DNA of 27,331 bases from Rhizaria sp. SCN 62-66 (lineage: Eukaryota): contig MEDY01000042.1 in NCBI GenBank assembly GCA_001724265.1, positions 310,001 to 337,331 on the forward strand, given 5' to 3'. Shown in pieces: positions 1-27,331 of this stretch (its first letter is position 1; every line of letters starts with the position of its first letter). Below the pieces are notes generated by a model. That model was not told the DNA's origin, did not search any database, and saw only the letters and a program-made list of their open reading frames with translations. Made by a program: the position numbers and the translations under genes.

Positions 1-3000
1 CGTGTTCACGGGCATTGACTCTGGCACTGACCGAACCGTGACCAATATCTGTGCGAGAACTCCCACGGACCTTGTCTTTACTTGACTTTGCATAATAGCT
101 ACTGCTTGGGTTGCTGGTATAAGCATGGCCATACGCAGAAACGCGAGGCTGATCCTGATCATTCTTAACGTCACCTCCGGCGTCGCGCTCGTCGTCGCAA
201 TCGTAAGAGTAGACATGGTTGTCACGATCGTTATCACTATCATCGTCGTCAACACTGTAGCTGCCCCCCCTCGTCGTAGGCGCGTCACCAGCCGTGAGAA
301 ACAACGAGCGTCCTGGCCCTCCACGCGGGTCCTTAGAGTTGCGGTCACGCTTCGCTTTCGTGGGCGCAGCGTGAAGCCGCGGCAGCTGGCTGTGAGCGAG
401 CTCCTTGTACCCGGCACCGCGGATCGAGCTGGGTTTGCTACTGCCACTAGAACCGATATATGCGTCGCGCAGATTCTGGTTCCGATGCTGCTGAAAAGAG
501 TACTGGTTGCCCTCATTCACAGCGCGGTTTCGGCCGGCATCAGCATAAGGAAACTCGCCCTGGACTCGCATCGCGTGAGGCCCGCTGAACTTCGTGAGGC
601 GAGATACGCTCGCGTTGGAGTCAGCGGCACGACCAACTTGGTCGTCGTTGTCGTCGTTGCTGCGCGCAGATAGAGCGCTGTTATTGAAGCCAAAGAACGA
701 GTCCCGAACAGTCGACTCGGCAGCGTCACGACGAGTATCGCGTGACGCGGTCGCGGCACTAGCAGGTGTCCAAACGTTGTTTTGGACGTGAATGTGCGCA
801 AACATGTTTTCGCGTTGCTTATTGATCTCGGTGGCACGGCTACTGCCGTCACGAGGAGCATTACGAGAGCCAGAGCCAGAACCAGGACCATTAATCGCAC
901 GGTGGTCACCGACGCCAGCAGCAGAGCCGGCAAAACTGGAACTTGTATGATATGCGCGCTCACTCTCATCAAGGGCGTCAAAGGCCCTGAAACTGATGTC
1001 ACGTGAACCGTTATTACCATTGCCAATACCGCGAATGCCCGTATTGTTGGAATCGTTAGGGTTTGTTGCGCCGTGGCGAATCGGCTTGAAGGGGTCATCT
1101 CGACGACGGCTACCGCTTCCAACAGGCCCGTTTGTGAAGTCGAACGTGTCGCGCGCGAGCTCACGCTCACGCTCACTAGTGTTCTTTGCAGACTCATCAT
1201 TGTTATCATGTCGTTCATTGTAATCTGGAGCAGTGAAATCAGGGAGCTTCGCTAGGAGCTCAGTCGTGACTGTCAGCTCACGGTCCCAGCGCAAAGCTTG
1301 GGGCCAACCGTAGAGCCTCTGTGAACGTAAAACTAGAGTGTCAACGACACTCGAGATATCATTAGTGAGACTGTTCTTGATGGCAGGCTTCTCGACTGCC
1401 TTGTTCGCAGCAGTCAGCGCAAGTTGCAAAGAAAACATACGAGTGAGAGACACTGAGAGCGACATCAGGTACCACAGCTGTTCCACAGAAGAGTCAAACA
1501 GAGTCGATACACCACTCGCATAAAGCATGCGACTAAGCTTGAAAAGAGACGGAGCGACCGTAGCGTGAGGGCAACTCACGATAGAGTTCTGCAATTGAGC
1601 AACGAATGTTCCATTGCTGAAGATGCGAGAGTATGTCGCGAAACTATCCTCGGAAGACGATGAAGCGGATGCAGAGCTCAGTGATGAGCTAAAATTGGAT
1701 GATGAGATGACTTGAGCGTGCTGATTAGCAGCTTGGTTATTCCTCATGAGACGCGCTGCTAGCGGTAACGACTCAGTGTCAAAGGCAGATGAGGCGCTGT
1801 TTGTCACATTAGTACCGATGTTATCGCTCTTGTTGAGATTGTTGTTAATGCTGCTAGTGATGTTAGTGTTCGGGACTTTCTTCGAGCTCTTGAGCTCCTC
1901 GAGTAACCGGACAAGGTGCCCATCTTGTTGGGCAATATAGCTGTGACTTTCAGCAGCGGGCAGCAAAGTCAAAGACCTTGACTGAGAGTGAACAACATGA
2001 TTTGCTTGTTCAAGCAAATGTGACACGGTAAAATCCGGGTCACCACTGTCAGAGCTTGTACTAGGCGAAATGGATCCGTCAGAGTTGCACAGTGCGGATG
2101 CGAAGTAACGAAGTGAGTCGCGGTTGTTGCTGACGGCAGCAGCTGCGACAGTAGCGAGCACGTTTAGCCCAGTGTCAGTGGTGTCGCCACTGGCCGCATC
2201 ATTTGAGGTGTTAATATAGGACAGATACAGTGAAGCAGCCGCACCAAGCAGAAAGGAGGCGAACACACTCGGCGGAGTCGCAGTATACTGGCCGAAGGTA
2301 ACAAGGTTGCGTGCTAAATGCCTAGATTCAGAGCTTGCGTTTGCGTCATCGCTGGAACGAGTCCACGTGTAAGTGTACGCACGGTGATGTTGCTTGAGGG
2401 CAAGCATGGTTACGAGTCCGGGGAAGGGAGTGCCATCCCCGGCATGATAATCGTAGCCTTCATCCTCAAGATAATCATTGTTGCTGACGTCGTCATCGCT
2501 CTCATTGCGCGCAGAGTCAGCTTCAGTCGACTTCGACTTATCAGACAGAGCGGCCTGGTTCATCTCGCTCTTAGTGTTCCTTGCTAGCGCAACATCGCTG
2601 TCGCGTGATAACGTCGTGAACAAATCAGTCTCACTAATGCTCACACTCTTGATAGCGGTATCACCGACAGCTTTGGTATCAGGCTGTAATCCAGTGTGAC
2701 CAAACTTCCGCTGAGCCCGGTCCAACTTCAATCCGCGCAGGAAATAACCGAGTCGCGCGTTGTTGCTGTAGGCATTGGACAATGCCAACTCTTTGTCATT
2801 CGCGTCATTATGGTCCTTTGCACTTGAGCTACCGTGACCGTCGTTATGATTGTTGAGGTAGTAATACGTGTTATCCTTATAGCTCTGGTGGCGGGAGACA
2901 GTAGTGTTGTTGTAAAGCGCTGCGAACCGCGTCAATGCAGTCGCATTTGCTGTAACACCGGCGAAAATGTCGAGATCATCCGCAGTAGGAGCACTTGCAT

Positions 3001-6000
3001 TTGCACTGCCTAAATTGGGATGAAAACTGTCGGAAGAACAGCGCAGCTTATTGGTTGCCTCTGCAGCCTTGTTGTTGCGAGCGAGCGTGAGTGCGGTGCT
3101 CACAGTCGTTGCAAAAGCCTTCAGATGCGGCGTCAGCGCGAACGGATTTTGCATGCTGTCTAAGTATGTCACTGCCGTTGAAAGCCGTGTTTGCGTCATG
3201 ATAATGACATCGACTGAGAAACTTTCAAAGCCAACGCCAAATTCAGCATCCATGCTAGCTGATTTGTTGTTGCTGTCGCTGTTTTTCGTGAGAACACTTG
3301 CTGGCGTCCGTAGAAGTAGACGCTGTAGGTACTTGGACAACGCCGGCGGGACGGAGTACGACGACATGTCACTCCAACACTTAGCACCGGTGTCAACGCC
3401 GTCTGAAGAGCCCTCGCCGCAAGTGCTCGACGCCAAACTGATCACGGTGAAGACATTGCGGAGCATCGCCGGTACCTTGTCGGCCTGTGAGAAGAGTGCG
3501 AAAAGAATCAAGAAATAAAATTCGAGTCGTGATAGTTCCATCGACATAAAGCACCAAAAACATTAAAATTCATTCATGGCATAACATATTCTCGCATAAA
3601 AGAGTAATACGTACCTGGAAAGAAAGTCGCCTGCGCATGACGGTATACTCTTGCTGCTTCTGCTCCAACCACTCTTTGTACTCCCCCGCCGCCTCTGCGA
3701 CGTCCAGCTTGGTCCCGCTTGTAAGCACGCCGCGCTGGTTCCTGCTGTCCAGCGCAGCGGCCACGTGCACAACCGCGTCTTGGCACCAGCGCACCATCGC
3801 GGCTGCCGCTGCGGCCGCCGCGCGCCAGTGCCCGTGGTAGCTGAGCGCAACGACGAGCTGCTGCAGAGACTGCTCGACCTCGTACGCCGCGTCCAGCCAC
3901 TTGCGCGTCGACGTCGATTTGATGTCGACCGCGTGCTTCGTTTCCTTGTTGATCGCGTGCGCAAAGTCGCACATGACGAGCGCAAGCGGGGCGCCGAACG
4001 GGTGGAAGCGGGTCGCGCGCGTGTGCGTGATAACGTTGGAGATGACGCACTTGAGCTCGACTTCAGTCGGGAACGCGACTTTGGGCGCCGTTGAAGACTG
4101 TTTACGAGTGGATTTAGAGCTTGAAGAGGGGTTGTGATGAAGGGGGATCGGAGGCGGATCTAAGAGCATTCCGAGCGCTGACCAGCACGTGGCTAACACA
4201 GAGAAACGTGCCAATGCTGAAACAGCCGGCTCGAGAGTGATAGGCAGTGATGTCAAGTGCTTGCACACTGCAGATGCCGAAGAGTCCGGGACAGTATTAA
4301 TCACAGCATCAGTGCCTGCAGACGCTGTGTCTTCATGCTGACTCCGTCCTCGAGCTAATGACTGTTGTGTCTCCTTCGTGTTGTTCAGCTTTGTAAGCAT
4401 CATTGCAAGTGGGGTCGGTAGCTGCATCGTTGTCTTTGTTGCCATAGTAACGGGTAATAGCAGCGCCATGGGGACAGCAAACGGTGTTCGCGACGCGTAT
4501 TCTTGGCCAATCACGTTAGCTTCCCAGTATTCGTCACCAGAGTCATTGCCACGGGAATTAGTCTCTGCAGTGGAGCTGATGTTGCTTGAGGCAGCATATT
4601 TTTTTTCGCGGTTGACCTTAGCAGCAGCGTCGCAAAGCGTAGTTTGCGCGCGCTGCGCCGCGCGTGCAGTCGCACGCGTGCCAATATTGATCGCTGCGGC
4701 GACGGCGACGGCGAGTGCGAGCGACGGCGCAATGCGGCACAGATCGGTCACGATTGTGGTCGACTGACGTACGTAGCCGGGACACCGCTGCCACGGCAGC
4801 ACGGGCATACTGAGGCTGTGGGGGTGGCCTGCAGCAGCCGGCGAGGCAGCCAGCCCACTCAAGTTCGCGTCAGTGCCCAATGATGCGTGCGTGAGGAAGG
4901 GAGTGGTGCCGAGTCCAGCAAAAGATGTTGTTGTCAAAATATCCCGCTGATCATTCAAAGATGAGGAGTCAATAACACCGCAGTGCTCAGTGCTCAGAAT
5001 AAGGTGGTTTAAAGCCCTTACAACAGGCACACCGGTTGCCGTTGTCGTCGGCAAAGACTTGTCGCTAAGACAGTCATTACTGACTGCCATGTAAGCTCCC
5101 TGACTCGAGGCGCTGTGGTCAGTTCTTACCTTGTCAATATCAGTGTAGTCGTTCGCCCAATATTTGTTGACACTTACATCCGACACGAAGAGCTGGTGGT
5201 ACAACTGTTGCCACATCGCGGTCCTTTTGAGGGCGCTCGCTTCATCCATCACGTTGTGCTCACGCATCCACTGAGAATGTACTGGCGCAAAGTTGTTGCT
5301 ACTGTTCAAACGCTTCGGTAGCTTACTGTGATTACGTAAAATAGACTTGCGCTCACGCTCAGCATTGTCGATACCACTCCCACGCGCGGTTGAGTGTCCG
5401 TTAGAACTCCCCAGCTCAGACAAAACAGAAGCGTTATCGTTCACAATGTTAGAGTCTTCAGCGACAGCAGAGCGGCGTGCCAAACTGAGCTGTTCTGTTG
5501 CGTTCCTCAACTTAACAACCGTAGCTGTCGTCTCCATGCATGAGATACTAACGTCATTTTGATCGCTCTTGAGCCGGTGTGGGAGAACAAACGGCGCTGC
5601 ACTGATCCCAGTCACGCCCAAATCACTCAAGGTCTTCGTGTAACCGTGCACACTGAGCGTATGCGCCTCAGCCCACACCGAGACAGCGCTAAACGCGGGC
5701 TGGTCAACGCTCGCGTCCGTCATCTGGTAGATGTCCAGAGCGGCGGCAGCCGTGGCAGCGGCGCGCGCAGCGGTGGCCGAGGCCGCGAGCAGGTGCTGGT
5801 TGTGGGAAAAACTCGACAACGTGCGGACAAAAGGGCAAAAGACCGAGACAGAAGCTGCGACACTGACTGTCACGGTCACAGCGCCCGAACCAGAGCTCAG
5901 GCGTGAATCATAGTTGTAGTTAGAGTTCGTGTTGGTGATATTTGCCCCCAGCGCTGACTCGCGTTCCTGGGATAACAACACATCGAAGTTGCTCCGGGCG

Positions 6001-9000
6001 TCCGCGCTCGCACTGAAGCTGGACGAGTTTCGCGAAGCCTTCGCCGCTAACAACGCCTGCAGCTGCTCCTGGTGCCGCTGCTGCCTGTCGCGGAAGAATG
6101 CCGGCACCGACACGGGCGCAGCAGTGTACAGAAGCGGAGCGGGCACGTGGGACACGTGGCCCGGACATGTCACTTCACTGACCAGAGCGAGAGTGTTGAT
6201 GAACCAGTCGACGAATCCGTCTTTGTTGCGGTACTGTGTCAACCAACGCGGTAAGTAGTGGCTTCCACGGCGACAGCCCAGACTGGCGCCGTATGGGCTG
6301 TTTGTATACATGTAAATGTTCGTAGAAATGCCATGTTGCGGCTTGCAGTTGCCTGCAGTCGTGTTGAACAAAGGCAGAGTCATCACAGTGAGACCTCCAG
6401 CCCAGTTGCTGCTAGTGAGACCTGGGTGAGGCGGAACACTACCGTTCGCGTTATTCGTGTTGTTGTTAAGCGGCTGCACCGAATAGGAGCGAGAAACTTG
6501 TTCCAAAACACGAACAATCCTCTTCCTCTCGGCCTCAAGCACGCTACTCGCGTTACTGCCCGTCGCGGTCACGGCTGCCGCCTGCGTCTTGGCAGCAGCT
6601 GCCGCGGATGCTGCCAGAGTCGCCGACGACATCCCAGAGGCCGCGGCCGCCGCAGGCGCTGAGTATACGTCAATTTTGCCCATCACAGTCGTTTGCGGCA
6701 GCGCTGCGATGCAGGCTGCGGCGGCGGCGGCGGCGGCGGCGCAGTCAGCCGCGACTGCGCGTTGTGCGCGTGCGAGCGACTGAGGCTGCAGCAGAGAGTC
6801 TGCGAAGGCGGCGTCTTCAGCGGTCGAGGCCGCGAGAAGCCACGGCTGCGACTGCAGAGTTTCACTGAGAATCTCCGTGATCTCGTCAGGATGGCGATGT
6901 GACGCTGTTGTCGACGTAGTCAGGATTGAGGGGGAAATATTGATCGCTGTCGTAGTAGCATGACAAGTCGTGTTTGAAACCTCAGTTGCACTAGCGCTCG
7001 CACTGGAGCTCGAACTCGAGCTTGAGCACGAGCTAGAGCCCGTGATGTAGTCCAAATTAGCGTTGCTGCTCATGCTGCTGAATGAGAACAGGCTACGCAG
7101 AGGTAGGTACGTCGCGGGCACAGTCGCGGTGACGGAAACACTTGCGGTGCCGCCAACCATGGTAATGAGGCGAGGAATCTCAGTGTCCGCAGTAAAAAGC
7201 TGGGGAAAACGCGGAATTGCTGTTAGCGTCGGGACAGTCACCGACGCGGACAGGCACTCCCAGGAGAAGAACGAGCATTGTGAGCCGTGGTGCTTGATCT
7301 CAAAGTTAAGCATCCTGGGGTCACAGATCGCAGAATACTTCACGAGTTGTTGCTGCTCCCACTGCGTCTGCTGTTGGTCCAGTAAATCCAGACGGCGTTG
7401 CCTGAACTGCTTCTGGAGCTCAGGGCTCACAGTAAGGACCCCAGGACGTGAGTTGTTGTTGTTGCTACTAGTCGTAGGCGAGGCAATTATAGTGATGTCC
7501 TCGCTGTCATCCTCATCGTCATCGTCAGTAACAATACGACGGCGCTTGACATTTTGAGTAGTGATGCTATCAGCACTGCCACTGCTTTCGCTGCTGCTGG
7601 CAGATGCAGGCGTGTTGTTCGCATCACCTTCGCCCAGACGCTTACGATCTGTATTGCCAGCAGTAGAGTCAGTGCTAGTTATGGCGTCGCTGCTACTCTC
7701 AGTCAAGGCAGCAGTAAGGATATCACGATACTGACTCATGACGGTCGTGTTATTAGGACCGTTGCTCTTTGCGTCCCCGCGAATTGCGATGCCACTTGAA
7801 ACTGTGACTACCTGAAGCGCCGGGACCGCACTTCTAAGTCCGTCATTCCTGCTGCTCGGGTCGTTGTTTTTACTGACGCCAAGCGAATTGCTGTAACGCG
7901 CGTTCTCATCTACCCAGTCTTGAAGCAGCATGGACATCAGGTACAGGTTGCCCTGCCTCTCGCTGACGAAGCTCGCAGCGTACTCAACCAGCTTGCCTTT
8001 GGTACTGTCATTCAAATCAACAACAGTCGCATTGGCACTCGTCAAACGACGGTTGTGGCTGCTTGAGTCGTCGCTTGCGTTGTTATTGATCAGAAATGTC
8101 GCCGCTTCCTTCGTGTCCGCGGCCAGCGCTGCCGCTGCCAACGCCTCAGCGGTGAGCCGCACCCTCACGAGCACTGGTTTCGCCACCGACACGAGATAGC
8201 CAGCGTGGCGCGCACTGACACCGGCTGCCTTAGCTAACTTTTTACGCGCATCGGTTTGCTTCTCAAGGTCATCGTCAATCTCTGCATTCGCCTTTGACTT
8301 GGATTTAGCTTTAGAACTAGCGTTAGCACTGGCCTTAGCAGTTGCTTCAGCGCGCTTAACCACATCAGCAGCGTCTTCCTCTTCGTCATCCTCGTGCTCG
8401 CCCTCGTCTTCGTCCTCAGCGAGAGGTTGAATCGCCTCAAGCGCCTTGGCCACCGCGGTCAGCGCAAAGAACGCCATCCTCTCGGTCGACGCGAGGAAGA
8501 AACAGCACGCTGCATGCGCCGCGGCGGCCAGCGGCGACTCCCCGATGATGTCGTTTTGCCGCGCATAGTGCGCGCGGCACAACGCGTCGCGCAGGGGCAC
8601 TGGGTCGCCGCTCTGGTGCGTCGTGGAAAAGCCGAAGACCGAGGGAAAAAGGTTCTTTGGGGCGCGCGTGGTGGTGAGTTTGTCGGCAGGCGATGAGAGG
8701 ATGAAAGCAAACAACTGGGGCGGATATAGCAGAGCGCAGTAGCGAAGAAGAAAGAGAACGGGTGGGAAATAGAGTGACGCGGCGCAGGGCAGCGCGGAGT
8801 GTGCCAGGCCCCACTGCAGAGCGAGACACGTAGTGAGGGTTGCGTCGGAACGGTACCGGAAGATCGAACCGTCTAACAGCATCTTGCTACCGGCGTCGGA
8901 CAAATGCGAGCTAGCTGCTGCACTAGAGCTCGAACTGCAGCTGGCGATGTTCATATCATCACTGTTAAAGCTGGCAATAGAGGTTGCGTCGATAACAGGA

Positions 9001-10997
9001 GCTGTGGGCACAGCGCCCGCATGGCGCAACAGAAGCTCCGTCGCTGCGCTGACTTGCTGCCCGGCGTCACTCAGCCAGTGCAGTTGCGCACTTAGAGTGT
9101 GCTTCGTCAGCAAGACACCGTTGCGATGCCAGCCGTAGCTGTGCTCACTGTAACCGCACGGACCGTCGTCACTGCAACTGTCGGTGCTGCTATAGAAGCA
9201 ATCACCGGCGCTCTCAAGCTCCAGGTCTGACTCCGAGTCTGAGCCATCAGTGTCGACGTTCGCTGACTGAGCGGAAGCAGCAGCGAGGGCAGCTGGCACT
9301 GTGAGCACCACAGTCGCGTCTAAGGGGACCTGCGTAAGTACGCGGACCCTGCCCTTAGCAGTACCCACGCCAACGGGGACGCCCGCTCCGCAGCCATCAG
9401 ACGCGAAGCCGTTCTTACTAAGACGGACAATTTCACTGCCGGTCTCAGCTACGACGAGACTAATGCTACCAGCGCTGAGGGCGGAACTGTTGTGGGGCGT
9501 ATTGAAGCAATGTTCGACCGCAGTCGCCATCAGTTCAACGCACGATACTGCTTGGATAGAAGGTCCGGCATCGTTGCCGCGCTTGCTTTTACTCTTCTTA
9601 CCCTTGCTGCCAATATTATGCTTGAGATCGTAAGCGATACCCTTAGCCTTGGTTGCAAAATATTTCGCGTCGGATTCTGTCGTCACACCCACCGCAACAA
9701 CGACAGCACTCGTCTCGTAGTTGTTGTCAACAGTAGATGCAACCGCAAAGCTTGCAGACGCGTTCGCAGTAGTGCTCATGCTGCCAGAAGACTTAAGCTG
9801 AGAGGCAGCAACTGCCGGCGCGTTTGCCTTGGTCAAATACATGCGCCGCGCACTCTTGGCAGCCGCAACGTACTCGTGGTACACCGGCATTAGCGCCTCG
9901 ACCTCCGGCCACGTCAGTGCCTGCGCGACCTCGGCCGCAGACGGCTGCGAGTGCTGCCACAGCAACGTGTCGCGCGGCTCCCAGTAGTGGGGCGGGTCTG
10001 ACGTCGACTGCGGAGACGCCCCCGCGCTGCGCAACGACTGCAATACGGACCGCGACTACGATTGCGATAACAGTTGGTCGTTGCTCTTGCCGTTGTTGAT
10101 CTTGCTGACATTAGAAATAGGCTACGCTGTTGCAATTGCAGCGAGTGAAATATCGCGAATACAGTCAGATAGCGTGGCCCTAGCAATCGAGGAAATCTCA
10201 GCTGCACGCTTGGTAGTAGCATCATCGCTCGAGCCTGCATTGTCTGTGTCTGCGTCGGCCATTGCGGTGGCGGTCTCGTCGTGCTTACTCTCGTCGCTTC
10301 TGCTACCAAGCATAGCAACGGCTTGCTCGAGTGCAGGTAGCAATGCTGCTCTGACGTCGGTTGCAAGGAGAGCGCGCGTCGACTTTTGCGCCGCATGCAA
10401 GCTCTCTTTGGCCAGATCATTCGCGGCCTTGAGAGCCTTACGAGCGGAAGCAGCGCTGAGCGACCTCACACCATTGTTGTTACTTGTACTCGCACTATCA
10501 TTCGCGGTTGTACTCGATTGAAAGCGTGAGATCGATTTCGCGGCGTTCATACTAGAGTGAGAGTTAGCAACATGCTCGGAATCAGAATCCGACTCGAGTG
10601 AGGAGGAGGACGAGGAGCCGGCGGCAGAACTAGAGTCAGATTCAGAGTCAGAGTCAGCATCAGAAGTGTCTTCATCAGAGCTATCAGAGCTATCGGAGCT
10701 AGAACCAGAACTCACGTTGGCGTTGCTGTTGCCGTTGTTTGTGCGCGAGTTAATGTTAGAGCCAAGGCCAGGCGGGTCGTAGCAAAAGCCCACCGACGGC
10801 GCGACGCAGATGGTGCTGCAGCGACTGCAGCAAGATGGCGTCGATGGGAGCATGGTGAGGGAGCGGGTGACTAGAGCCGCTGCTCGAGAGGATAAAAATG
10901 GTGCGGTAGTACCATGTCTAGTGCAAGGTGAATATAACGTAGCACAAGGGGTTCCACACTCCAAACAGGTTTCAGGGCAATCAATGCCCATCCTCAT
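1..10997 (-). CDS. Giant low-complexity (Ser/Ala/Asn/Asp-rich) protein of unknown function, >3600 aa, 3' end beyond the window. Exons 10997..3615 and 3484..<1. Contains two in-frame TAG codons (10122-10124, 10056-10058).
   Basis: ORFs 10122..11078 and 3570..10043 share a frame and are separated only by two TAGs. A 130-nt AT-rich phase-0 intron at 3485-3614 (TTCCAG|GTACGT ... TCTTCTCACAG|GCCGAC) links to a frame that I read open from 3484 to position 2 (ADKVPAMLRN...RVNAREH, 1161 codons). That frame is absent from the ORF track, probably because it has no stop. The start is uncertain: ATGs lie at 10997 and 10991, but an in-frame acceptor-like site (TTTTTCTTGTCTCTGCAG|TAC, 11043/11042) suggests a further upstream exon. 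No domain recognised. Confidence 0.8.
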
Positions 10998-11771: not shown

Positions 11772-13265
11772 TTAGTTAAGCGGCGGCGGCGGCGGGGGAG
11801 GCGTACCGGCGCCCGCGCTCGCGTTAGCCGCGCCCGCGTTCGGCGCCGCGCCGCCCGCGCCCGCGTTGTTGGCGGCGGCCGCGGCGGCCGCAAGCGCCAT
11901 GGCTTCGGCGACCGCGGGCGGCGGCGCGAGGGACTCGAGAGAGTGAAGCAGGATGTTCTTCTCGTCTGCGAACTGCTCGTCCTCGCGGTCCTTCTGGAAG
12001 TCACGCAGAAACGCGATCAGCTTGTCCTTGTTGCGGTACAGGATCTCCTGGATCGTCTCGGTCTTCTTGGGGTTCGCAACAAAGATCTTGAACACGTGGA
12101 ACGCCTCGACCTAAAAGTGAGGGGAAAAAAATTATAAAAACAACAAAAACATTTGAGCACAAGGATCAAAAGAAACAACAGTAAGACGTCGATAGTTACG
12201 TTGTTGATGAATAAATACGTAATATATAATATAATAGTGGACATATGTTCTGATTTCGCAGAGATATATGGAGTTATAAGTACCTGTGTGGCCTTGGAGG
12301 ATGCGCGAAGCAGGCGCATCGTGGCGATGAGGTGCTCAGGGATGGCAATAAAGCGCATCATAATAGTGAAGTTCTCGCGTGACAGCAGCAACGTGGCGAG
12401 CAGCTTGAGCGAGAGGCGGCACGTGACGTACTCGCTCGAGTTGAGCAGCTTCTGGTACTTAGCGAAGAACGAGTCGAAGTTGTCGTCGAGGTACTTGCAC
12501 ACGAGCCGCTTGTGCTTGGTCAGCAGCGCCGTGAACGTGGCGAACGCGTCGAGCGCGACGTCAAAGATGGAGACCTGCAGCAGGCTGAAGAGCTGGTCCA
12601 GCAGCGGCGGAGACGACAGCAGCATGAGGCACAGAGACTCAGAACGCAGCGTCTCGCGGAGAATAGCGCCGCAGGTGAGCGCGATGTTGCCCTCGCCGTA
12701 GCCCTGGATCAGCGTCGAGAGAATGTCCGGGTGCCGCGTCACGAACGTCACGGCATCGTCGCGGTTGTTGCGGAAGAGATACGTGTAGACGTGGAGCAAA
12801 TCCTTGCGCGCCTCGAACTCAAGCAGCACGATGCGCTGGATGAGGGTGAGCAGGATGTCAGACTCGAAGATGGCCTCGGTAAGCTTATCCACAGTCTCCT
12901 TCTTAGGCTCCGATTCGCCGTCGCCGTAGAAGATCACCTTCATCGCGGCGAGGTTGTCCGTGATCTTTTGCACCGACTGCGCGAAGATATACAAAACAAC
13001 ACAAGAACAAAGCGAAAGTCAAGATGCAAAGGACATGAGAGGCAACAGGAGATCATAGCGGAGGACTATCACAATACCAACTAGTAACAAGGTTTCGAGG
13101 ACATAAAATCGACATCAGATGTGTTTTTCGGGGGCCTTTTGTGATTAAAAGTACCTTCTTGACGCCCTTCTCGTCGTTTTTCTCGTCGACCATCTCGCCG
13201 AGGTTCTTTTGGATCGACTTGACGATCTCGCTGGGCGACTTTTTCGTTTTAAACAGAAAAGCCAT
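11772..13265 (-). CDS. MO25: MO25 / calcium-binding protein 39 (CAB39/Hym1) family kinase scaffold, about 380 aa. Exons 13265..13155, 12976..12284, 12110..11772.
   Basis: The spliced product has family motifs: N-terminal [67 protein letters not shown] and [17 protein letters not shown]. Phase-0 introns at 12977-13154 (GTACTT..GCAG) and 12111-12283 (GTACTT..TTTTAG). Stop is TAA at 11772-11774. Confidence 0.95.
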
Positions 13266-17134: not shown

Positions 17135-18517
17135 AGAAGCAACAGCAGCAGCAGCAGCAGTTGCAGGGCAGCAGCAGCGACTTCGGTGTCAGCAGCAGCA
17201 TGACCGTGAGCGTTAGTGCGTCTGGCAAGACCATCTACTACCCGTCGACAAACCGCGTGCTGCGACCCGAAGACGCGCCCGCGCTGTGCACGGGCAAGCT
17301 GCGCCAGACCAGCCCGGTCCACGAGGAGAGGTGGGGCGGGTGGAGTGAGCCCGAGGAAGACATCATCAAGGTAAGCAATCACGTAAAACGCATTTTTTTT
17401 CCGGCTGATATCAATGTGCTGTTTTCTGAAACTTGGGTATAATGCGATTAATATCAGAATCTATATTTAGTATCCAATTTATATCTGTATGTGTTTGATT
17501 GGTTGATATATCTCAAATATACCTTTTGCCTTGTTCGCTCGCTTTATCTCTAGGTCCGTGGCCCGAACTACCTGAAAGACAGCGTCAAGTCCCTCGCGGG
17601 CCCACACCTGTTCCGCTTGGTCCGCATGGACCAGTGGTTTCACCCCACGGAGAAGCAGGTCCACGTGTCACGCCGTGCAGACTCGTATACCCAGTGGTAC
17701 CTCAGTCAGCTTCCTGCCGCGCGCTCGCAGCCGCTGGCCGAGGGCGAGCCGGCGTACAGCATGGACCGGCCGCCGCTAATGGTGATGCACTTCATGTTCC
17801 CGCACAAGGGCTTCAGCAGCTACACGGCGTACTACGAGATGCCCAAGGCGGAGGACGGGCGCACCTACGCCAAGTGGGACAACAAGGGTACGTGTGCGAG
17901 GACAAAATCGATTATATATCGACATAATTAACCGGCATTGCACTTAGGCCGAGAAAAATGAGTGCGAAAACGAATATTGTGTTATTATTTGTTTAGTTTG
18001 CCAGACCGAAACGCCCAAATACTGTTGCTTATCTAATCATTTACTAAACACCTGTATTTCTCATTTCGTTCTTCCCTGCACAGATGCGCCAGAGCAGCCT
18101 CCTTTGGCACCGCCCACCGAGGGCACGCGCGCGCTGCTCGAGGCCTTCCTGAACGGTACGGACGAGTTCCGGCGCAACTCGCTCAAGATCATCCCACACT
18201 TGGCGGTGGGCGCGTGGCTGGTGCAGCGCGCGATCGGCTCCAAGCCGGCGATCCTGGGCACCAAGATCACCACCACGTTCCACACGGACCCGCTGGGGCG
18301 GTACTTCGAGGTGGGCGTGGATGTGCACAGCTCGACCATGGCTGGCTACGTGCTGCAGGTGCTGCGCAACGCCGCCAAGTCCATGGTGCTTGACCTGTAC
18401 TTCACGATTGAGGCCAAGAAGGCGGAGCAGTTGCCCGAGCAAATCATCGGCGGCGTGCGCCTGCATTACCTCGACCTGGACAAGACGCGCGACTGCAGCG
18501 ACGAGAGCAACGAGTAA
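14230..18517 (+). CDS. N-terminal PH domain, long low-complexity linker with two hydrophobic segments, and C-terminal EDR2_C (DUF1336) domain, about 1302 aa. Exons 14230..17370, 17554..17887, 18084..18517.
   Basis: PH signature: LAGYLSKKGSMVGLWSQRYFVLT...FLRASSASDAALWARAM. EDR2_C signature restored across the introns: WSEP....IK|VRGPNYLKDSVKSLAG..LF.LVRMDQWF ... FLNGTDEFRRNSLKIIP.LAVGAWLVQRAIGSKPAILG...YFEVGVDVHSS...LDLYFTIEA....QLPEQIIGGVRL. Introns at 17371-17553 (GTAAGC..CTAG, phase 0) and 17888-18083 (GTACGT..ACAG, phase 1). Stop is TAA at 18515-18517. Confidence 0.9.
16186..16212 (+). repeat. (CAG)9 coding microsatellite, poly-Gln
   Basis: Nine perfect CAG units in frame in exon 1 of the PH/EDR2_C gene. 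Confidence 0.95.
17092..17160 (+). repeat. (CAG)13-(AAG)3-CAA-(CAG)6 coding microsatellite, Q13K3Q7
   Basis: Read directly from the sequence, in frame in exon 1 of the PH/EDR2_C gene. Confidence 0.95.
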
Positions 18518-19000
18518 GCTCCAAGTTCTGTTGTCAGTCAATCCTGAGCTTGATGGATGCGTGATGCATGTGGGTTCGGTCCTGAAATCGGTTTAGGACG
18601 TATCGGCACGTTCTTTTATTGCTGAGTAGATGGTGTTTTGTTCAGGTTCACTGTGTGCGCTCGCTGCTGTTTCTTGGTCATCTAAACCTTCATTCTTGGA
18701 TCGCACTCTATCAGAAGCTGAGTATTTATCAGCATCAGCTCGCTATCGTTTTGTATTTGTTGTCTCGTCTTGAGATTGTGTGCATTTTGACCCAGTGTAA
18801 TAGTGTCAGTGGTTTGCTCAATCACGTGCGCATCTTGTGATTGATTTTTTTAAGTTGTTTGGTTTTGACTTTTTCATCGTACATATACTATCATGGTGTC
18901 GCCGGACAACCTGAACAGATAGGACGTTTCGCGAGTGCATAAAAGTGAATGACAGTAATCCAATACAAACGGATGGCGCTCGGAAGAGTCTGTTCAAACC

Positions 19001-19152
19001 TGTGGAAAGCGTATAGCGATTGATAAATAAGTGAGTCTATTGCGGATAAACCATTGTTGTAGGTAAACCAATGATATTAGAACACACAACACCTCATGAA
19101 GCATCAGAATGTATTATTTGCGTATGTGTGGAAAGCGTATAGCGATTGATAA
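19001..19152 (+). repeat. Perfect 26-bp direct repeat TGTGGAAAGCGTATAGCGATTGATAA, two copies (19001-19026, 19127-19152), 100-bp spacer
   Basis: Identical 26-mers in the intergenic region upstream of the kinase gene. Confidence 0.9.
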
Positions 19153-19501
19153 GCTTGACAGAAAGTCCCGCTCCCATCGCCCACATCCAGGCCGCCATTC
19201 CTACACAATTCCCCGACGTTCGACGTCTGTCATTAGTTACAGTTGCAATTTCATGGATTTTGAGCTAGCCAATCCGCGTTTGCTTTTTGCGCTGGCACAG
19301 AGTACATCCTCCGTCATTTTCAAATGAATTTTGCCACGTAGCCGATTATCACCTAATTAATTTCTCCATTGCAGTTTCATTTTTAGAACAAGGGGAACAG
19401 CTCTAAAATCTTCAAAACAACTCATATCCTCCTCCGTCCCTTGCAGGTAATCCACCAAGCAACTTGGGGCATTAAAAGAGCCACATCGCACGGTCAATAA
19501 C

Positions 19502-22500
19502 ATGGCCGATGCCGCCACACCACTGGCGCCGATAAATCCAATCATGATATCGCCCAGCTCTTCAGCTACGTCGGTGACCTCACGCAGCAGTGTGACAACT
19601 GATAATACTACGAATCACACAAGCAAAGGTACAACTCTCACTGGCTCTAACAGCAGCCTTAGCGACAGTCTACGTAATGCCGCCAACATTCCGATGTTTT
19701 CGTCCTCCTGTTTTCGCTCCGGGCGCTTGGCGGGGCACGGCGGCTTTTCACGCGTCTACCGCGCCGTTTACACGCCCGAGACCGGCGAGCCTATCACGGT
19801 TGCGCTCAAGGTGCTCAACGCGAGCGCAGACGTGCTGCAAAGCAACAAGGCCGTCATGGACGAGCTGCAGCTGCAGTACCAGCTCCGGTCGTCTTACGTC
19901 GTGCGTTGTCATGGTGTGACAGACACCAACGCTCGTGCCATCGAGAGTAGTAATGGCAACCTCAGCGACACCCGCAGCCGCAGCGGAAGCGTTGCGGACG
20001 TGGATAATAAAAGCAAGTTCGTCATCGTGATGGAATATCTCGCAGGTGGCTCGCTTGACCGACTGTTATCGCACCCTGACTACCGCACTCTATCCAGCGA
20101 AGGGCGCGCGTGGCTCGCGCAGCAAGTCATCTCCGCCGTCCATGCGTTAAGCATCGAGAAGATTGTCCACGGCGACATCAAACCCCTCAACTTTCTCTGG
20201 GACGTCGGCGCGAATTGCACGCGCCCACTAGTCAAGATCTCTGACTTTGGTACCTCAAAGCTCCAAGAGACGGTGCAGAGCCTGTCACACACACCTGCCA
20301 ATCGTACGTTTTTCTATCATAGGTTTGGCAAATATTAAACTGGACAGATATCGTCACCCTTTTAAATCTTTGTTTTCGTATTCAAGCTGATTAATTGCAC
20401 GCTGACCCTTAGCTGTATCTATGTTTGCATTCTAGATTCAAACAAGGGCACCATGTCTTGGATGGCACCGGAGCTGCTCACTGGCCGTTACCAACACAAC
20501 TCCAAGACGGACGTGTACGCACTCGCCATGACGCTGTACGAAATCGCGTTTGGTGTGAGGCCGTTTGCGAGTATCCCGCAAGACGTGATCCCGAATATCG
20601 TTGGCAGAGGCCAGCGGCCCACGCTTGACCTCGCTGACTACAACGGCGACGTCCAGCAGGAGCTGTTCCCAGGCACCATGCCGCCGCAAGCGCTTATCGC
20701 GCTGATTGGCGAGTGTTGGGACCAGGACCGCGACAAGCGGCCGGACATTGACGTTATTGTCGATCGTGTCGAAGCCATGAAGACTGATGAATGCGCTGCC
20801 CGTGCCTTCATGTTACGGCTGCTTGACAGCCGCGATCAGCTTTAGCAGTCCCAGCATCTCTCGCGACTGTCGATCAACGCCACTGGCGGCTCACTTGTTC
20901 GCTCACCAATCTCCCGCTCTAGCTCCGAGAGCCAGCCGGTTTCACCGGCACCGCGTGTCCCAGCAAGCGTGCAGCTACGCGTGCCCCCGCCCGTGCCGCC
21001 GCGGCCGTCCACGCCGATGTCCGCCGGCCTGGCGGCGAGGTCCGGTGCGGCTATCGGTCCGCAGCCCGGTGTAAGCGACCCGAGCGCTGCGCGGTTAGTG
21101 GCTGCTAACCCGTCGTCGTTGTCGTCGTCGTCGTACTCCGCGGCAGCTGGCCGCACAACGGTCTCCTCCGGTGTTACTGTCCAGTTAACGCGTGTGTCAA
21201 TTCCGCAGTCAACTGCGCAGGAAACCTAGAGAGATCTCGCCTTATCGGCGACAACATCCAAGGGACTGGCGGTGTCGCAGTCAGGTGCTTCTGGTACCTT
21301 GTCTGTTCCATCGTTTGGGGCTGTTTCGTCATCTTGCGGAGCACAGTCTCAGCCGTATCAAACGGCACCGCAATATCAGTCAATGCAGCCTGGGCAGATG
21401 ACATACCAGTATTATCCGCAGCAGCATCAACAACAGCAGTGGAACTATCAACATCAGCAGTATAATCAATCCCAGCAGTGGCAGCAGCCACAGCCCCGCC
21501 ATCAGCAGGATCACTGGCAGCAGCAGCAACAGCAACAGCAGTGGCAGCATCAGCAGCAACATCAGCAGCAGCAACAGCAGCAGCAGTGGCAGCAGCAGCA
21601 ATGGCAGCACGTGTCTAGCTCAGTGCAGTCGTCCGTAATGGTGTCCGCACCGTACGGGCCGCACAGCCAGACTTAGGATACTCAGTCGGTGCAGCAAGCG
21701 AGTGGCCCGCAGTCCCCGCATTGCCAGACTCACAGTGGACCGCAACAGCTTTCACAGCCGCACCAATGGAGTGCGGAGTCGCCAAACCACTTGCAGCAAC
21801 AAGTGCAATGTCGCATGCCAGCGCCGCAGTTGCAAGCTTCCAAGCAACAACAGAATCAGCAGCAGCAATAGCTGCTGCAAGAGGACCTAGATCGTGAGCG
21901 TGCGCAAGACAACGCTGCAGGATCCCCACATCAGCCCGCGCAGAGCGGTGCTCGTGGCCTCCCGCTAAGGCCGCCAGCGGTGTCAGCCAAAGCAATGAAG
22001 CTGTACAACGAAGGCTGGGCAATGCTGCGTGCGAGCATTTCCACCAACGTCCACGTGGCCGGATTTGAGATTATTGCGGCGGCTGCCAGTCTGGAACATC
22101 CCGACGCAATGCGCGAAATGGCACGGTCGCACACGCGGCCATACTTCGGTCGCTATGACGTCGCAGTTGCCAAGAAGTGGATGAAGAGTCTTGCCGCCAT
22201 CAGCGCAAGTGGCAGCTATGAGTACGCGCTTTGGCTCATGTCACACGAACTCGATCTTGACGACGCCGAAGATAGTCTGCGCAACGCCATTGCCGCAGAA
22301 CATCCCTTTGCTGAAGGCGCGCTTGCGGCTCTGGACGCGCTTAAGGTCGAGCTCGGGATTACCGGCCCGCTGAAGGACGCTGAGCAGGCTGAACTTGTGG
22401 CGCGCCTGCGTCTGGGTGCTAAGAGCGGAGACTCAGCAGCCACGTTTATGCTTGGCCGCGAGACGTTTTACGGCAAGTTTGGTCTCAGCACGGACGAGGA

Positions 22501-23131
22501 AACCGGCCACGCGATGATGATGCGTGCCGGCACTGCGACGGAGGGCGAGAACTTCTACGGACCCGCCGCGTCGTACTTCGGCTGGAAGGCAGACTCGCTG
22601 CCTCATCTCAAGGCTGCCGCTGAAGCCGGTCAGCCGTTCGATCAAGTCGAGTTCGGCAAGCATCTTGCGGAAACCGGCCAGCACGCCGCCGGGCTTGCGT
22701 GGCTGCACGTTGCCGCCGATGACGGCAACGCGTGGGCGCTGATCGAGCTGTCGTACGTCTTCCAAGAAGGGCTCTATGGACAGCGCAGGAGCGCAGCAGA
22801 GTCGTTTCGCTACGTGCTGCGTGCGGAAGCGACGGGCCACCCTGCGGGCCAGACCGAGCTTGCAAAGCGCTACGTTACGGGCGTAGGGGTGGGACGAGAC
22901 AGGAAGCTGGGCGCAAACAAACTGAAGGATCTTGCATCGCGCATGCACTACAAACCTGCGATGTACTGCATGGCCATTTGCTATCTTAACGGCTGGGGCG
23001 TCGACCGCAATCAAGACGCTGCCAAGACGTGGTTGCAGCTTACAAACGGTTATCCTCAGGCGTTGGCCGTACTTGCCAAACTTAAGGAAAAGTCATTTTT
23101 TGCGCGGCTTGTTGGCGACTGGTCTTGGTAA
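19502..23131 (+). CDS. TKL-like Ser/Thr protein kinase, Pro/Ser- and Gln-rich linker, and Sel1-like repeats; about 1165 aa if four in-frame TAGs are read as sense. Exons 19502..20303 and 20436..23131.
   Basis: Kinase motifs: GHGGFSRVY, VALK, IVMEYLAGGSL, VHGDIKPLN, KISDFG, GTMSWMAPEL, KTDVYA, LIGECWDQDRDKRP. A phase-1 intron at 20304-20435 (GTACGT..CTAG) joins the activation segment. ORFs 20453..20845, 20969..21229, 21272..21676, 21689..21871 and 21980..23131 are all in one frame and separated only by TAG. C-terminal Sel1-like units include AMYCMAICYLNGWGVDRNQDAAKTWL and GQTELAKRYVTGVGVGRD. Stop is TAA at 23129-23131. The domain calls are secure, but the fusion depends on TAG being sense. Confidence 0.85.
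21404..21610 (+). repeat. Degenerate CAG/CAA/CAT/TGG repeat encoding a Gln-rich tract punctuated by Trp, His and Tyr
   Basis: Translates as YQYYPQQHQQQQWNYQHQQYNQSQQWQQPQPRHQQDHWQQQQQQQQWQHQQQHQQQQQQQQWQQQQWQH in the kinase frame. Confidence 0.85.
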
Positions 23132-23624
23132 CTTACTCTCACAGAGTGGCAGCAAACAGTGTGACCGCAACGACTGGAGCATTAATCCTCGAATATTCGA
23201 CGAGTGATAGCCCGGCGGTTTCACTGCTTTATGAACGGCAGCCACAATTTTTATGCTGCATTCCACTTCTATCACCAATCCGCACCGTACGCACGCGCAC
23301 ACCTGTCACTCACACTCGCGTGATCTCAAACAGCATGTGACAGCAACGCCGCAATGTGCAGTCGAGTGACGTAATACCATCTGTCTACGCACTATTTGTG
23401 TATTTTTTACGCGTGGATAGTTCTTAAAAGCGCAAACATGTAGAAAACTGTACTCTCACACCCATCACTTTCACAACTGACTTTCTAACACATTCACGAA
23501 GACTTAAGCTGGAGCACACTTAAAGATAAGAGAGCATTACCACCATCAATATTTTTCGTGATAATACATGGACATACAACTCCCTCAATATGACATAACC
23601 CCGCGTTTCGTTCTTTGAGTTATT

Positions 23625-23895
23625 CTTACTCAGCGGATCGTACCCCGTGAACTTGACAGTGTACTGCTTCACCGACCCGTCCTGGTCCTGCACGCGCACC
23701 GTGAACGTTGGTTCGCTATCCAGATTCTTTCCACATCACCACGCCAGTCGCCTCCCGGCCGGCAAAACGCGCTGGGACAGGGTTCATCTCAGTTTTGTCC
23801 GAGTACTCCTCGATGACGCGGCGCACACTGTGCAGATCGCTCCGAATCGAGCTGGGGAACAGGCAGAGCGTCGACGGGCCTGTGTCACTGGCCAT
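23625..23895 (-). pseudogene. Probable frameshifted, 5'-truncated coding fragment of unknown family (about 90 codons)
   Basis: A GC-rich island with host-like codon bias in an AT-rich intergenic gap. It reads MASDTGPSTLCLFPSSIRSDLHSVRRVIEEYSDKTEMNPVPARFAGREATGVVMW, then after skipping one A of the run at 23728-23730, KNLDSEPTFTVRVQDQDGSVKQYTVKFTGYDPLSK. Confidence 0.45.
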
Positions 23896-24101
23896 CACTT
23901 GATTCGGGATATTACTCGTCAATTGTTAGAATTGCTAGGACAGATTAAACAACAAGCTTCAGCTACTACAGGCAGAAAGTGAAATATTTCGTTCAGTGCA
24001 ATCAGTATCGTATCGTGGAGATCTAATTTGCTCTTGTTTTATTTACTTTTCTGTGTCCTCAGACCTGTGTCCTGTGTCCTGAGCACCTTATTGTTTAAGC
24101 T

Positions 24102-26472
24102 TTACTTGGTCTTGGCCGCCGCAGCAGCCTTGTTGGGACGCGTAACGACCATATTGTTCGCGTTGAGGTGCTGCGGGTCTCCGGGGGGCTTGCCGAGGCG
24201 GTGCAGGTAGCAAAGCATGGCCCAATACGCCTCGCCGAGCGAGCCGAACTGGTTGTACTGGAGCCCGAACTCGGCGGCGGTGTCGGCGACGATCTTGGCG
24301 ACAACCGGATAGCAGTAGTGCGAGATCGAGGGGAACAGGTGGTGCACGGTCTGGTGGTTGAGGCCGCCGGAGAACCAGTTCCAGAAGTGGGAGCCGACGC
24401 CCCAGTCAGCGGAGCCGATGACCTGTTTCTCGGCCCAGTGGAGGTCGTTGGCGGGGATCAGGTTGTCCTGAAGCGAATAAAACAATAACATAGACAGTAG
24501 AAACAAAAAAAAACAGATTAGGAGTGAGAAGATCATTTGATATTAGACAATTCATTACAATAATTAGGACAACAAAATGTGGGAATCACTCAATAAAGCT
24601 GACAAGAAAAGAGCTGACAATATATCCGGTGTTAGGTGGACGTACCTGGATGTGGTTGACGATGAAGATGTTCTCGAGGTAGTGAGACGAGATGACCATG
24701 AGGAAGAACGCGGAGAAAAAGGCGAAGACGGGCCCGTGGTGGATGGCCGGGTAGAGGAAGTGGAGCAGGAACCAGAAGCCCTTAAAGCCGAGCAGAATGG
24801 CCCAGTCGCGGGGGGTGGTGTAGAACTTCTGCGAGCCGACCTTCTTGGCGAGGAAGTCAAAGACGTCGGTGAAGTACCACTTGAAGGTGCCGATGGAGAT
24901 GGCGAGCACGGTGAAGGGCGCCTGGATACGGTGGTGCGCCTGATGCTCAAGCCCCGGGTGGAAGCGGATGAACGGGTAAGCGATGGAGCAGTCGTTGTCG
25001 GACCAGAGCTGGTTCGGGGTCAAGTGGTGCGCCACGGCGTGCTCGTGGGTCCAGATCTTGGACGAGCCGCCGATCAGATCCATCACCTATACATCGCACA
25101 TCCATTGCGCAGAAACAACGATAGAAAACATAAAATACAAGTGAGACAATGTGGGATGATGAAGATACTTGAGTTAGAAAAAACAACATGTGAGATGCAA
25201 CACTGGCAAGCGTATTTGCCATATTATAAAAGGTCGCACAAATTCACTGTTCAAGTTCCACGTTGCAGTAGTGACGACAAACACACAGTTAAAAACACTC
25301 AAGTCGCTATTATGTAACTCGAAAGCACTATGATCGCAACTGGTGGATGATTGCTTTCGTACCTTCTCGATGATCTCGTTGACGGTGGAGTTGGTCGACA
25401 TCGCGCGGTGGTTGCCCATGTGCATGAAGAAGCCCAGACGGCCAGTGAGGAGGCCGATGGGGATGCACCACCAGTAGGAGCCGGACTGGGCGAGGAGGAC
25501 GGAAAAGAGCAGGTAGAGGAACACAGTCAGAGAGACCTCGAAGAGAGCAATCGACTGGTAGAAGTGGCGGCCCCAACCGACCTCCTTGAGCTTCGCCTCC
25601 ACGCGCGCGCGCACGGTGACGAGGAACTTGTCATCCGGGATCGGGGGCTGAAGTTGGGAGCAGGCGCGCGAGAGAGAGCAGGGCAAGGTCGAGCGAAGAG
25701 CGGCGGAGAGCGAAAAGGTGGGGGAGAAAAGCAAAGAGCAAAGGCCGGGGAAGTTTTAAAGGAAGAATACGTGAGAGATAAAAGCACGAAAAGAGACACT
25801 ATCACTGGAAATCGGTAGATTGTCTCGTGTTTTAATTAAATAACGTAAAAACAATTCGTTGCAGTGGTATGGCGCAGCGCTAGAGAGGAAAAACGCAAAG
25901 TGGTTGAGAACGGTGCAGAAGCCCGACTAGGGGAAACAACTCGACCGACTGACTATAGTCCCACTCCAAGCAGCATAAAAGACGCAAATTAGCGGGGATA
26001 GACGTACAGCGTTGGCAAGCTCGCCAATGTAGTACTTCTCGAGCAAGTTGAGGGCCTTGATCTGGCCGACAGAGGGGTGGTAGGACTCGAGCATGTCGGT
26101 ACCGTCGCGGCCGGCGCAGAACTTGACGATGTCGCCACCGGGGTGGTGGGGCACGAACTCAGTGATATCGTACACCTTGTTGTTCACAACGGTCCAGAAA
26201 ACACTACGATGGGAGAGTAGAACAACATAAAAGGTCGGCGTTAGGCGGAGAAATAGCGTGAAAAGCAGGACAAAACAGGGGGAAAAGAAGGGAAAGCGTG
26301 AATATGTGGGCGTCCAGGCACGTGAGGGAGTGCCCCGATAAGGAGCTTGTTGGAGGTGCGAAAAGCGTTATTGGACGTACCCATGCTCGCCGTTGTTGGC
26401 CATGACTTCCTCGACCGTGTAAGACTTGGCGCCCTTGGTCGCGGCAGTATCCTTCTTGGGAAGCACCACCAT
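24102..26472 (-). CDS. Cytochrome b5-fused front-end fatty acid desaturase (delta-5/delta-4/delta-6 type), about 459 aa. Exons 26472..26381, 26203..26008, 25647..25363, 25086..24646, 24467..24102.
   Basis: Cytochrome b5 domain WTVVNNKVYDITEFVPHHPGG. Three His boxes: HMGNH, HAVAHH and GGLNHQTVHHLFP, the last with the Gln-for-His change typical of front-end desaturases. Four GT-AG introns (26204-26380, 25648-26007, 25087-25362, 24468-24645) give a continuous 1380-nt frame. Stop is TAA at 24102-24104. Regiospecificity cannot be read from the sequence. Confidence 0.93.
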
Positions 26473-27093: not shown

Positions 27094-27331
27094 TTAGTGG
27101 TGGTTGTCCTTGGGGAGGAAGACGGGGTAACCACGGAAGTCGCGACGCGCGATGGCCTCGCCGATGCAGAAGCAACCGAAGACCTGGAGGGACCACACGG
27201 CGGCAGTGGCGACCTGCTTGTTGGTGAAGTCGGTGACCTTGGTGCCGGCAATCACGCACGCCTCCTTCTTGGCGGCGGCGTAGGTCGCGGGCATCGCGGA
27301 CGCCTTGCGGTACCAGAACTCGAAGCGGCGG
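27094..27331 (-). CDS. ATP20: Mitochondrial F1Fo ATP synthase subunit g (ATP20/ATP5MG family), 3' part; 5' end outside the window
   Basis: The frame is open from the window edge: RRFEFWYRKASAMPATYAAAKKEA...VATAAVWSLQVFGCFCIGEAIARRDFRGYPV...HH. This matches the subunit g C-terminal motif F.xGE.IG.R...GY. Strong GC3 codon bias. Stop is TAA at 27094-27096. Confidence 0.8.
   Translation of the reverse strand, partial: RRFEFWYRKASAMPATYAAAKKEACVIAGTKVTDFTNKQVATAAVWSLQVFGCFCIGEAIARRDFRGYPVFLPKDNHH

Follow-up and report, generated by a model that had tools for sequence, protein, structure and literature searches.

In-frame TAG codons in two genes of a wastewater-associated eukaryote point to TAG as a sense codon, with TAA and TGA kept as stops

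Does TAG still stop translation in the eukaryote that carries contig MEDY01000042.1? The question is raised by a stretch of 27,331 nucleotides (nt) of this contig (Rhizaria sp. SCN 62-66, NCBI GenBank assembly GCA_001724265.1, positions 310,001 to 337,331 of the forward strand), which we analyzed as a whole and call the window, numbering it from its first letter. It holds a gene that joins a protein kinase domain to Sel1 repeats (the kinase-Sel1 gene), and in the reading frame between the two domains stand four TAG triplets. The original prediction for this locus held that TAG is read as an amino acid, with glutamine (Gln) favored, and that TAA stays a stop. We consider it likely, judging from sequence comparisons, that TAG is a sense codon in this organism and that TAA, the usual terminator here, and TGA serve as stops. 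In two window genes and one paralogue, long frames that are otherwise intact are broken by TAG and by no other stop, and frames, domains and homology resume beyond it. The proposal that TAG encodes an amino acid while TAA remains a stop is supported by a second gene, a fused homologue, a conserved LPL motif ahead of the first available ATG, a paralogue (L003), contigs from independent studies, and TAA ends in five of five genes.

The kinase-Sel1 gene has the following parts; an asterisk in a context marks the TAG.

19502..20303, + strand: exon 1 (ATG at 19502), N-lobe and catalytic core, supported by Pfam; ends before GTACGT
20304..20435, + strand: intron of 132 nt, GTACGT...TCTAG, guanine-cytosine (GC) content 0.36, from sequence and composition
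20436..20842, + strand: exon 2, kinase C-lobe, Pkinase profile positions 155-258 of 263 (Pfam)
20843..20845, + strand: in-frame TAG no. 1, context RDQL*QSQH (translation; X3 record 23 and X4 record 32)
20846..21982, + strand: disordered linker rich in serine (Ser), proline (Pro), Gln and tryptophan (Trp), in frame with kinase and Sel1, 0 TAA/TGA
21227..21229, + strand: in-frame TAG no. 2, context TAQET*RDL (translation; X3 record 23 and X4 record 32)
21674..21676, + strand: in-frame TAG no. 3, context HSQT*DTQSVQQ (translation; X3 record 24, 0 other letters)
21869..21871, + strand: in-frame TAG no. 4, context QQQNQQQQ*LLQ (translation; X3 record 24)
about 21956-21990, + strand: conserved LPL..P..A motif, 3' of TAG no. 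4 (alignment)
21983..23128, + strand: Sel1/TPR-like repeat domain (Pfam Sel1)
23129..23131, + strand: TAA terminator of the gene

A Pkinase match covers window:19451-20335 (Pfam, E 1.8e-22), and at the level of the gene Pfam places Pkinase in both exons, with the second match in the opening part of 20366-23128, and Sel1 at the C-terminal end. Removal of the intron at 20304-20435 would join ...PAN-H-SNKGTMSWMAPE, restoring the kinase activation segment, and the frames on either side suggest that exon 1 is in phase with exon 2. The frame from 20438 to 23131 contains four stop triplets, all of them TAG, and is free of TAA and TGA until the TAA at 23129-31; number, contexts and positions of the TAGs agree with what had been described for this locus. 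The linker had also been called GC-rich and unlike the introns, and its GC content is indeed 0.60 overall (0.59-0.62 in a 500-base profile) versus 0.36 in the confirmed intron.

Homologues were sought with the Sel1 part in a protein search of 1.84 billion representatives. At E<=0.001 the Sel1 domain was found in 16,102 representative proteins, the closest non-self matches being 41-54% identical. One protein found by this search, P0065, has a cluster mate, P0210, and their open reading frames (ORFs) are 601 and 619 amino acids (aa) long, respectively. P0210, a metagenomic protein called with table 11, has a kinase C-lobe, a Pro-rich linker and Sel1 repeats in one unbroken ORF (Pkinase and Sel1 by Pfam), with the linker at the same position as that of the window gene. 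The C-lobe encoded by exon 2 (20436..20842) can be aligned to the kinase part of P0065/P0210, and the C-terminus of the kinase-Sel1 protein, ..DWSW, pairs with the end of P0210, ..PSFW (alignment A1). The LPL motif (P and A nearby) is invariant in four of four aligned sequences and stands after TAG no. 4 but ahead of the first in-frame ATG. That ATG lies at about 21995, downstream of the LPL..P..A motif; the LPL stretch is therefore translatable only from upstream. The window's own table-11 ORF in the database, P0060 (369 aa), begins after the last TAG. Two further searches were less productive. Linker residues 60-321, which surround TAG no. 1 and no. 2, gave 0 hits among 8,000 candidates scored, and the whole of exon 2 gave three weak Sel1 matches only, the search being swamped by polyglutamine (polyQ) words and the window's own product falling outside the length range.

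A scan for paralogues in JGI metagenome contigs with alignment A2 returned five loci (L001-L005). L001 is identical to window 20468-23174 and may derive from the source sample, and L005 is a weak match (30% identity). The informative locus is L003, which reads ...NAAK-TAG-WFRRAELAYA-TAA: the residues past its TAG agree with the W[LF]RR of the homologues, and the TAG column itself is variable (T, T, F, A, S, K, I in homologues). L004 ends in TGA. Compared with L003, L002 (1-1257, P0113) carries two frameshifts that compensate each other; it also contains two TAGs, of which one replaces an invariant Trp (encoded by TGG in L003). L002 is most likely either a pseudogene or a poorly assembled locus of low coverage, and was dropped as evidence either way on account of the frameshifts.

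Some features of this family were noted in passing. The Sel1 domain, with or without a kinase, forms a multi-copy family (L002-L004; P0061-P0063, P0065, P0068, P0080, P0210). Its closer relatives (E <= 1e-30) are all metagenomic, and three more copies lie in the metagenome of L001. L002 begins with TAA-ATG followed by a polyQ run. L004:751-1767 (- strand) holds an ORF of 339 codons resembling leucine-rich repeats, with a TAG 16 codons before its TGA, and both an end at the TAG and a read-on to the TGA are possible.

The second window gene with in-frame TAGs is a giant low-complexity gene on the opposite strand.

3615..10997, - strand: exon A of the giant gene (ATG at 10997), 2,461 codons, 2 TAG, 0 TAA, 0 TGA
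10122..10124, - strand: in-frame TAG (X3 record 18 and X4 record 28, 0 other letters)
10056..10058, - strand: in-frame TAG (X3 record 18 and X4 record 28, 0 other letters)
3485..3614, - strand: intron of 130 nt, GTACGT...CACAG, AT-rich; by our count the flanking ORF frames fit a phase-0 junction
1..3484, - strand: exon B, about 1,161 codons free of TAA, TAG and TGA, running off the window

This gene comprises at least 3,600 codons in all, and the in-frame TAGs at 10124 and 10058 are its only stop triplets. The 336 codons that precede the first TAG are free of stops in frame 0, versus 10 and 31 stops in the other frames. Before, between and after the TAGs alike, frame 0 has the best codon-usage score; the frame goes on for more than 3,300 codons beyond them, and no intergenic gap surrounds them.

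Introns were ruled out as the cause of the TAGs by the lengths of the candidates, in the linker as in the giant gene, and by candidate GC. For three of the four linker TAGs there is no GTRNGT..YAG candidate of a length divisible by three, and the sole candidate, at TAG no. 4, has a GC content of 0.56 versus 0.36 for the real intron. In the giant gene, the hand-checked spans across both TAGs are not divisible by three. Both well-supported introns of the window (donors 3614 and 20304) start with GTACGT, are 130-132 nt long and have a GC content of about 0.36 inside exons of about 0.6; further GTA[ACT]GT sites are present. The GTACGT donor may serve as a signature for more contigs of the same organism.

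The codons that end genes give the complementary picture. In addition to that of the kinase-Sel1 gene, the window has four terminators.

18515..18517, + strand: TAA terminator of a gene with PH and EDR2_C domains (Pfam)
11772..11774, - strand: TAA terminator of the Mo25 gene
24102..24104, - strand: TAA terminator of a cytochrome b5-fatty acid desaturase gene
27094..27096, - strand: TAA terminator of the gene for mitochondrial ATP synthase subunit g

TAA ends all five window genes with a readable 3' end (kinase-Sel1, PH+EDR2_C, Mo25, cytochrome b5-desaturase and ATP synthase g). When L003 (TAA) and L004 (TGA) are added to these five, TAG ends none of seven genes, a small sample. Within five long exons, 5,856 codons in total, we counted 6 TAG, 0 TAA and 0 TGA, alongside 207 CAG and 77 CAA. 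The TAGs seen so far are confined to disordered or poorly conserved stretches, and the earlier remark that no TAG falls at a conserved column holds for all of those in the window. Such rarity (6 of 5,856 codons) at unconstrained sites is what would be expected if new TAGs arise by drift.

Several findings weigh against a sense meaning of TAG. The evidence base is small, with six codons in the window and one in a paralogue, and there is no TAG in the 1,534 codons of the Pfam-supported exons, which hold 173 leucine (Leu) and 49 Gln. The absence of TAG among seven terminators is only weakly significant, and the damage in L002 means that pseudogenes occur in the kinase-Sel1 family. A scan of the window and L001-L004 for transfer RNA (tRNA) genes found none. 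Among the RNA-run pieces listed (X16, X10), none covers a TAG, and one piece of a polyA run (X16 record 15, 17881-18105) is unspliced across an inferred donor at 17888. The linker itself has three stops in 342 codons of the gene's frame plus one at the 5' edge, compared with five and four in the other two plus-strand frames, and in codon usage, with the 1,534 Pfam-supported codons as the training set, frame 0 scores no better there than the others.

The emphasis that the original prediction placed on an open frame across the linker stands only in part. The type of stop is unusual, since it is TAG only (TAA and TGA together number 0 in the gene's frame versus 4 and 2 in the other plus-strand frames); the frame is not unusually open, stops being similarly frequent in the others. 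The GC-by-position pattern of the linker is in phase with the flanking exons, though driven by CAG repeats. Taken by itself, the TAG-only pattern is of modest weight: about 0.05 by our arithmetic, times 1/3 for the shared frame. In CAG-rich sequence, TAG makes up 0.53-0.66 of random nonsense mutations, and under a random nonsense model with a TAG share of 0.53-0.61 six TAGs out of six would have a probability of about 0.03 by the same arithmetic; frameshifts are absent. The linker observation by itself is weak, and it is the other genes and the homologues that make a strong case.

The plainest alternative is the standard code, under which 20843 would mark the end of the kinase gene, with a separate Sel1 gene beginning near 21995, and the giant ORF would fall into two genes, or else the loci would be young pseudogenes with nonsense mutations. 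This would fit the position of the first TAG, about 10 codons past the end of the kinase domain, the stand-alone Sel1 ORF of 369 aa that the table-11 caller produced (P0060), and the damaged family copy L002. It would also fit the equal density of stops in the linker frame and the other frames, and the fact that TAG is the commonest nonsense product of CAG-rich sequence (the share of 0.53-0.66 given above). We nevertheless judge it improbable: kinase and Sel1 share one frame with 0 TAA/TGA across about 342-343 codons, P0210 has the fused form, and the first available ATG comes only after the conserved LPL motif. The 336 upstream codons of the giant gene have just one open frame, the one that the downstream ORF uses, and no intergenic gap separates the two. 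Neither a frameshift nor a TAA or TGA occurs in the 5,856 codons, and the sequence recurs identically in contigs of three studies. An ambiguous TAG, by which the codon would terminate at true gene ends and be read through internally by a suppressor or near-cognate tRNA, or would be reassigned partially or depending on context, also appears improbable. Ambiguous stop/sense codes are reported in some ciliates and in Blastocrithidia, which counts for this explanation, as does the rarity of TAG (6 of 5,856 codons) and its restriction to unconstrained regions. However, TAG is found at none of the seven terminators, and the six TAGs have no common 3' context (next bases C, A, G, C, C, T). In addition, if readthrough is inefficient, four rounds of it in a row would yield hardly any full-length kinase-Sel1 protein.

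Two further alternatives place the cause in the transcript or in the data. Adenosine-to-inosine (A-to-I) editing of premature UAG to UGG occurs in sexual-stage transcripts of some filamentous fungi. Repair of the codon in the messenger RNA, for example by this change to Trp, would suit a linker unusually rich in Trp and the L002 TAG at an invariant Trp (TGG in L003). We regard editing as highly improbable here: L002 with its two frameshifts is unreliable, the TAG of L003 and the first TAG of L002 pair with polar or variable residues and not with Trp, and the TAG sites have no coverage among the RNA-run pieces listed. Moreover, in the Mo25 tree described below the organism does not fall within Amorphea, the clade to which the fungi belong. 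For an assembly or sequencing error at the TAGs nothing was found in favor, and such an error is almost certainly not the cause. Logan contigs of X3 (study P2) span six of the six TAGs and those of X4 (study P3) four of the six, with no other letter at any of them. The supporting records are 18, 23 and 24 of X3 and 28 and 32 of X4, from studies that differ from that of the possible source (P1). Because contigs of other studies show the same letters, the TAGs are not assembly errors; L001, possibly from the source sample itself, likewise matches 20468-23174 exactly. The check for assembly error suggested with the original prediction, carried out on contigs instead of raw reads, thus returned the same TAGs and no CAG.

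If TAG is a sense codon, its meaning is less clear than its status. Gln had been favored by the context of the TAGs, and this argument fails because prediction from local composition was less accurate than one from global frequencies; it ranked Ser first. TAG no. 4, set as X, pairs with Q or K depending on the alignment method, and the TAG-aligned columns in the paralogues are polar or variable, not Leu. On prior knowledge only, Gln would be the most likely meaning, with about half of the probability that we give to TAG as a sense codon; it is preferred as the usual outcome in other lineages and because CAG to TAG is a single transition. By analogy with other UAG-reassigned eukaryotes, UAG would be read by a tRNA that has a CUA anticodon and most probably descends from tRNA-Gln, and eRF1 would have lost or weakened its recognition of UAG.

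Nuclear genetic-code changes are rare. Uncoupling of UAG from UAA is known for very few lineages, namely Iotanema, the rhizarian exLh and some phyllopharyngean ciliates (PMC5304391, PMC11687900). In the window and its paralogues, in-frame UAG occurs in several genes, UAG ends none of seven (a small sample), and UAA and UGA are absent in frame yet terminate genes. This is very probably a UAG-only sense reassignment, a further case of a known, rare kind. The closest pattern is that of Iotanema spirale (Fornicata), in which UAG encodes Gln, UAA and UGA are stops, and the terminators comprise 104 UAA, 15 UGA and 0 UAG (PMC5304391). There, too, only UAG occurs in frame, and only occasionally, and UAA is the main terminator, as TAA is in five of five genes here. 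The same account bases the Gln assignment on 22 of 28 hyperconserved positions and a likelihood test (PMC5304391); Gln is thus demonstrated in Iotanema, whereas in our organism it is a matter of prior knowledge. The two also differ in way of life: Iotanema is described as an anaerobic gut flagellate, whereas the present organism encodes subunit g of the mitochondrial ATP synthase and is found in metagenomes from wastewater and bioreactors.

In exLh, a rhizarian of the Sainouroidea, UAG is reported to encode Leu, with 384 UAG in 71 genes, at conserved Leu positions, and terminators of 56 UAA and 15 UGA (PMC5304391). The code described there resembles ours in being UAG-only with UAA and UGA as terminators, and a rhizarian, Spongospora, is the only named neighbor of the window's Mo25 clade outside Amorphea. 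In contrast to exLh, the 1,534 Pfam-supported codons, 173 of them Leu, include no TAG, and the TAG-aligned columns are not Leu. The exLh pattern of frequent UAG at conserved Leu is not seen in this organism, with 0 TAG among 1,534 domain codons. Phyllopharyngean ciliates are reported to have UAG reassigned to Gln or Leu (PMC11687900). What they share with our organism is a UAG reassigned apart from UAA. Phyllopharyngean macronuclear DNA is gene-sized and AT-rich, whereas the window is a 27-kb multi-gene piece of contig of about 55% GC with introns of 130-132 nt. Codes in which UAA and UAG together (UAR) encode Gln are listed for many ciliates, hexamitid diplomonads, some ulvophytes, Streblomastix and Amoeboaphelidium (PMC5304391, PMC11687900). 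The shared feature is a stop codon read as an amino acid; UAA is sense in those codes, whereas here there is no in-frame TAA in 5,856 codons that include 77 CAA. A UAR = Gln code (NCBI table 6 type) is excluded because TAA is used as a terminator, ending five of five window genes with 0 in frame.

Habitat and the Mo25 gene give some indication of what the organism is. The stretch is present in bioreactor, wastewater and activated-sludge metagenome runs. An Mo25 search returned the window's own product and then metagenomic relatives at 55% and 53% identity; the named matches, at 44-50% identity, were Spongospora, chytrids, Rozella and Paraphysoderma. The Mo25 tree has 50 rows, the window and P0004-P0052, with the short partial matches P0053-P0056 left out. 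In it, the window falls in a clade of 15 metagenomic rows, outside a 33-row clade (support 100/100) with Amoebozoa, fungi and animals. Spongospora, a rhizarian, is the only named sequence outside this 33-row Amorphea clade. The position of this single gene outside Amorphea offers a lead on the lineage, not a firm placement. A profile search of genome contigs with the Mo25 alignment gave only two spurious bacterial matches (L006 and L007). An aphelid origin (Amoeboaphelidium) is not supported, as Mo25 does not group with Rozella and chytrids, again on a single gene, and TAA is used as a terminator.

An independent origin of the UAG-only code is plausible in view of the Mo25 position outside Amorphea and of a GC-rich multi-gene contig with introns of 130-132 nt, which resembles neither a ciliate nor a fornicate. 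The fuller description, of an aerobic wastewater or bioreactor eukaryote that is neither ciliate nor fornicate, lies outside Amorphea and has a further independent UAG-only sense code, with an amino acid that may not be Gln, has in our estimate an even chance of being right. Within the literature searched, no eukaryote from wastewater was listed with a code of this type. If the code is real, it would add an independent data point on the capture of UAG with UAA still in use as a terminator. When metagenomes are annotated under the standard code, the proteins of this organism would be split or truncated, P0060 being such a fragment of the kinase-Sel1 protein.

Other observations concern the rest of the window. 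At 23523-23925 (- strand), a small gene-like ORF (MASDTGPSTLCLFPSSIRSDLHSV...) meets a TAG at 23718-23716, where another frame turns protein-like (KNLDSEPTFTVRVQDQDGSVKQYTVKFTGYDPL, then GTAAG). Neither frame has a Pfam match, and the site may hold another in-frame TAG, a small intron or a shift of frame. Summed contig depth at 16116-16779 reaches 492 in X4 and 254 in X16, versus 4-10 elsewhere. This peak corresponds to a low-complexity stretch of the PH+EDR2_C gene coding for alanine, Gln and Ser, which probably recruits contigs of other organisms. Finally, the AT-rich region upstream of the kinase gene (window 19000-19160) contains a direct repeat of about 27 nt (...GTGGAAAGCGTATAGCGATTGATAA...), in two copies about 125 nt apart.

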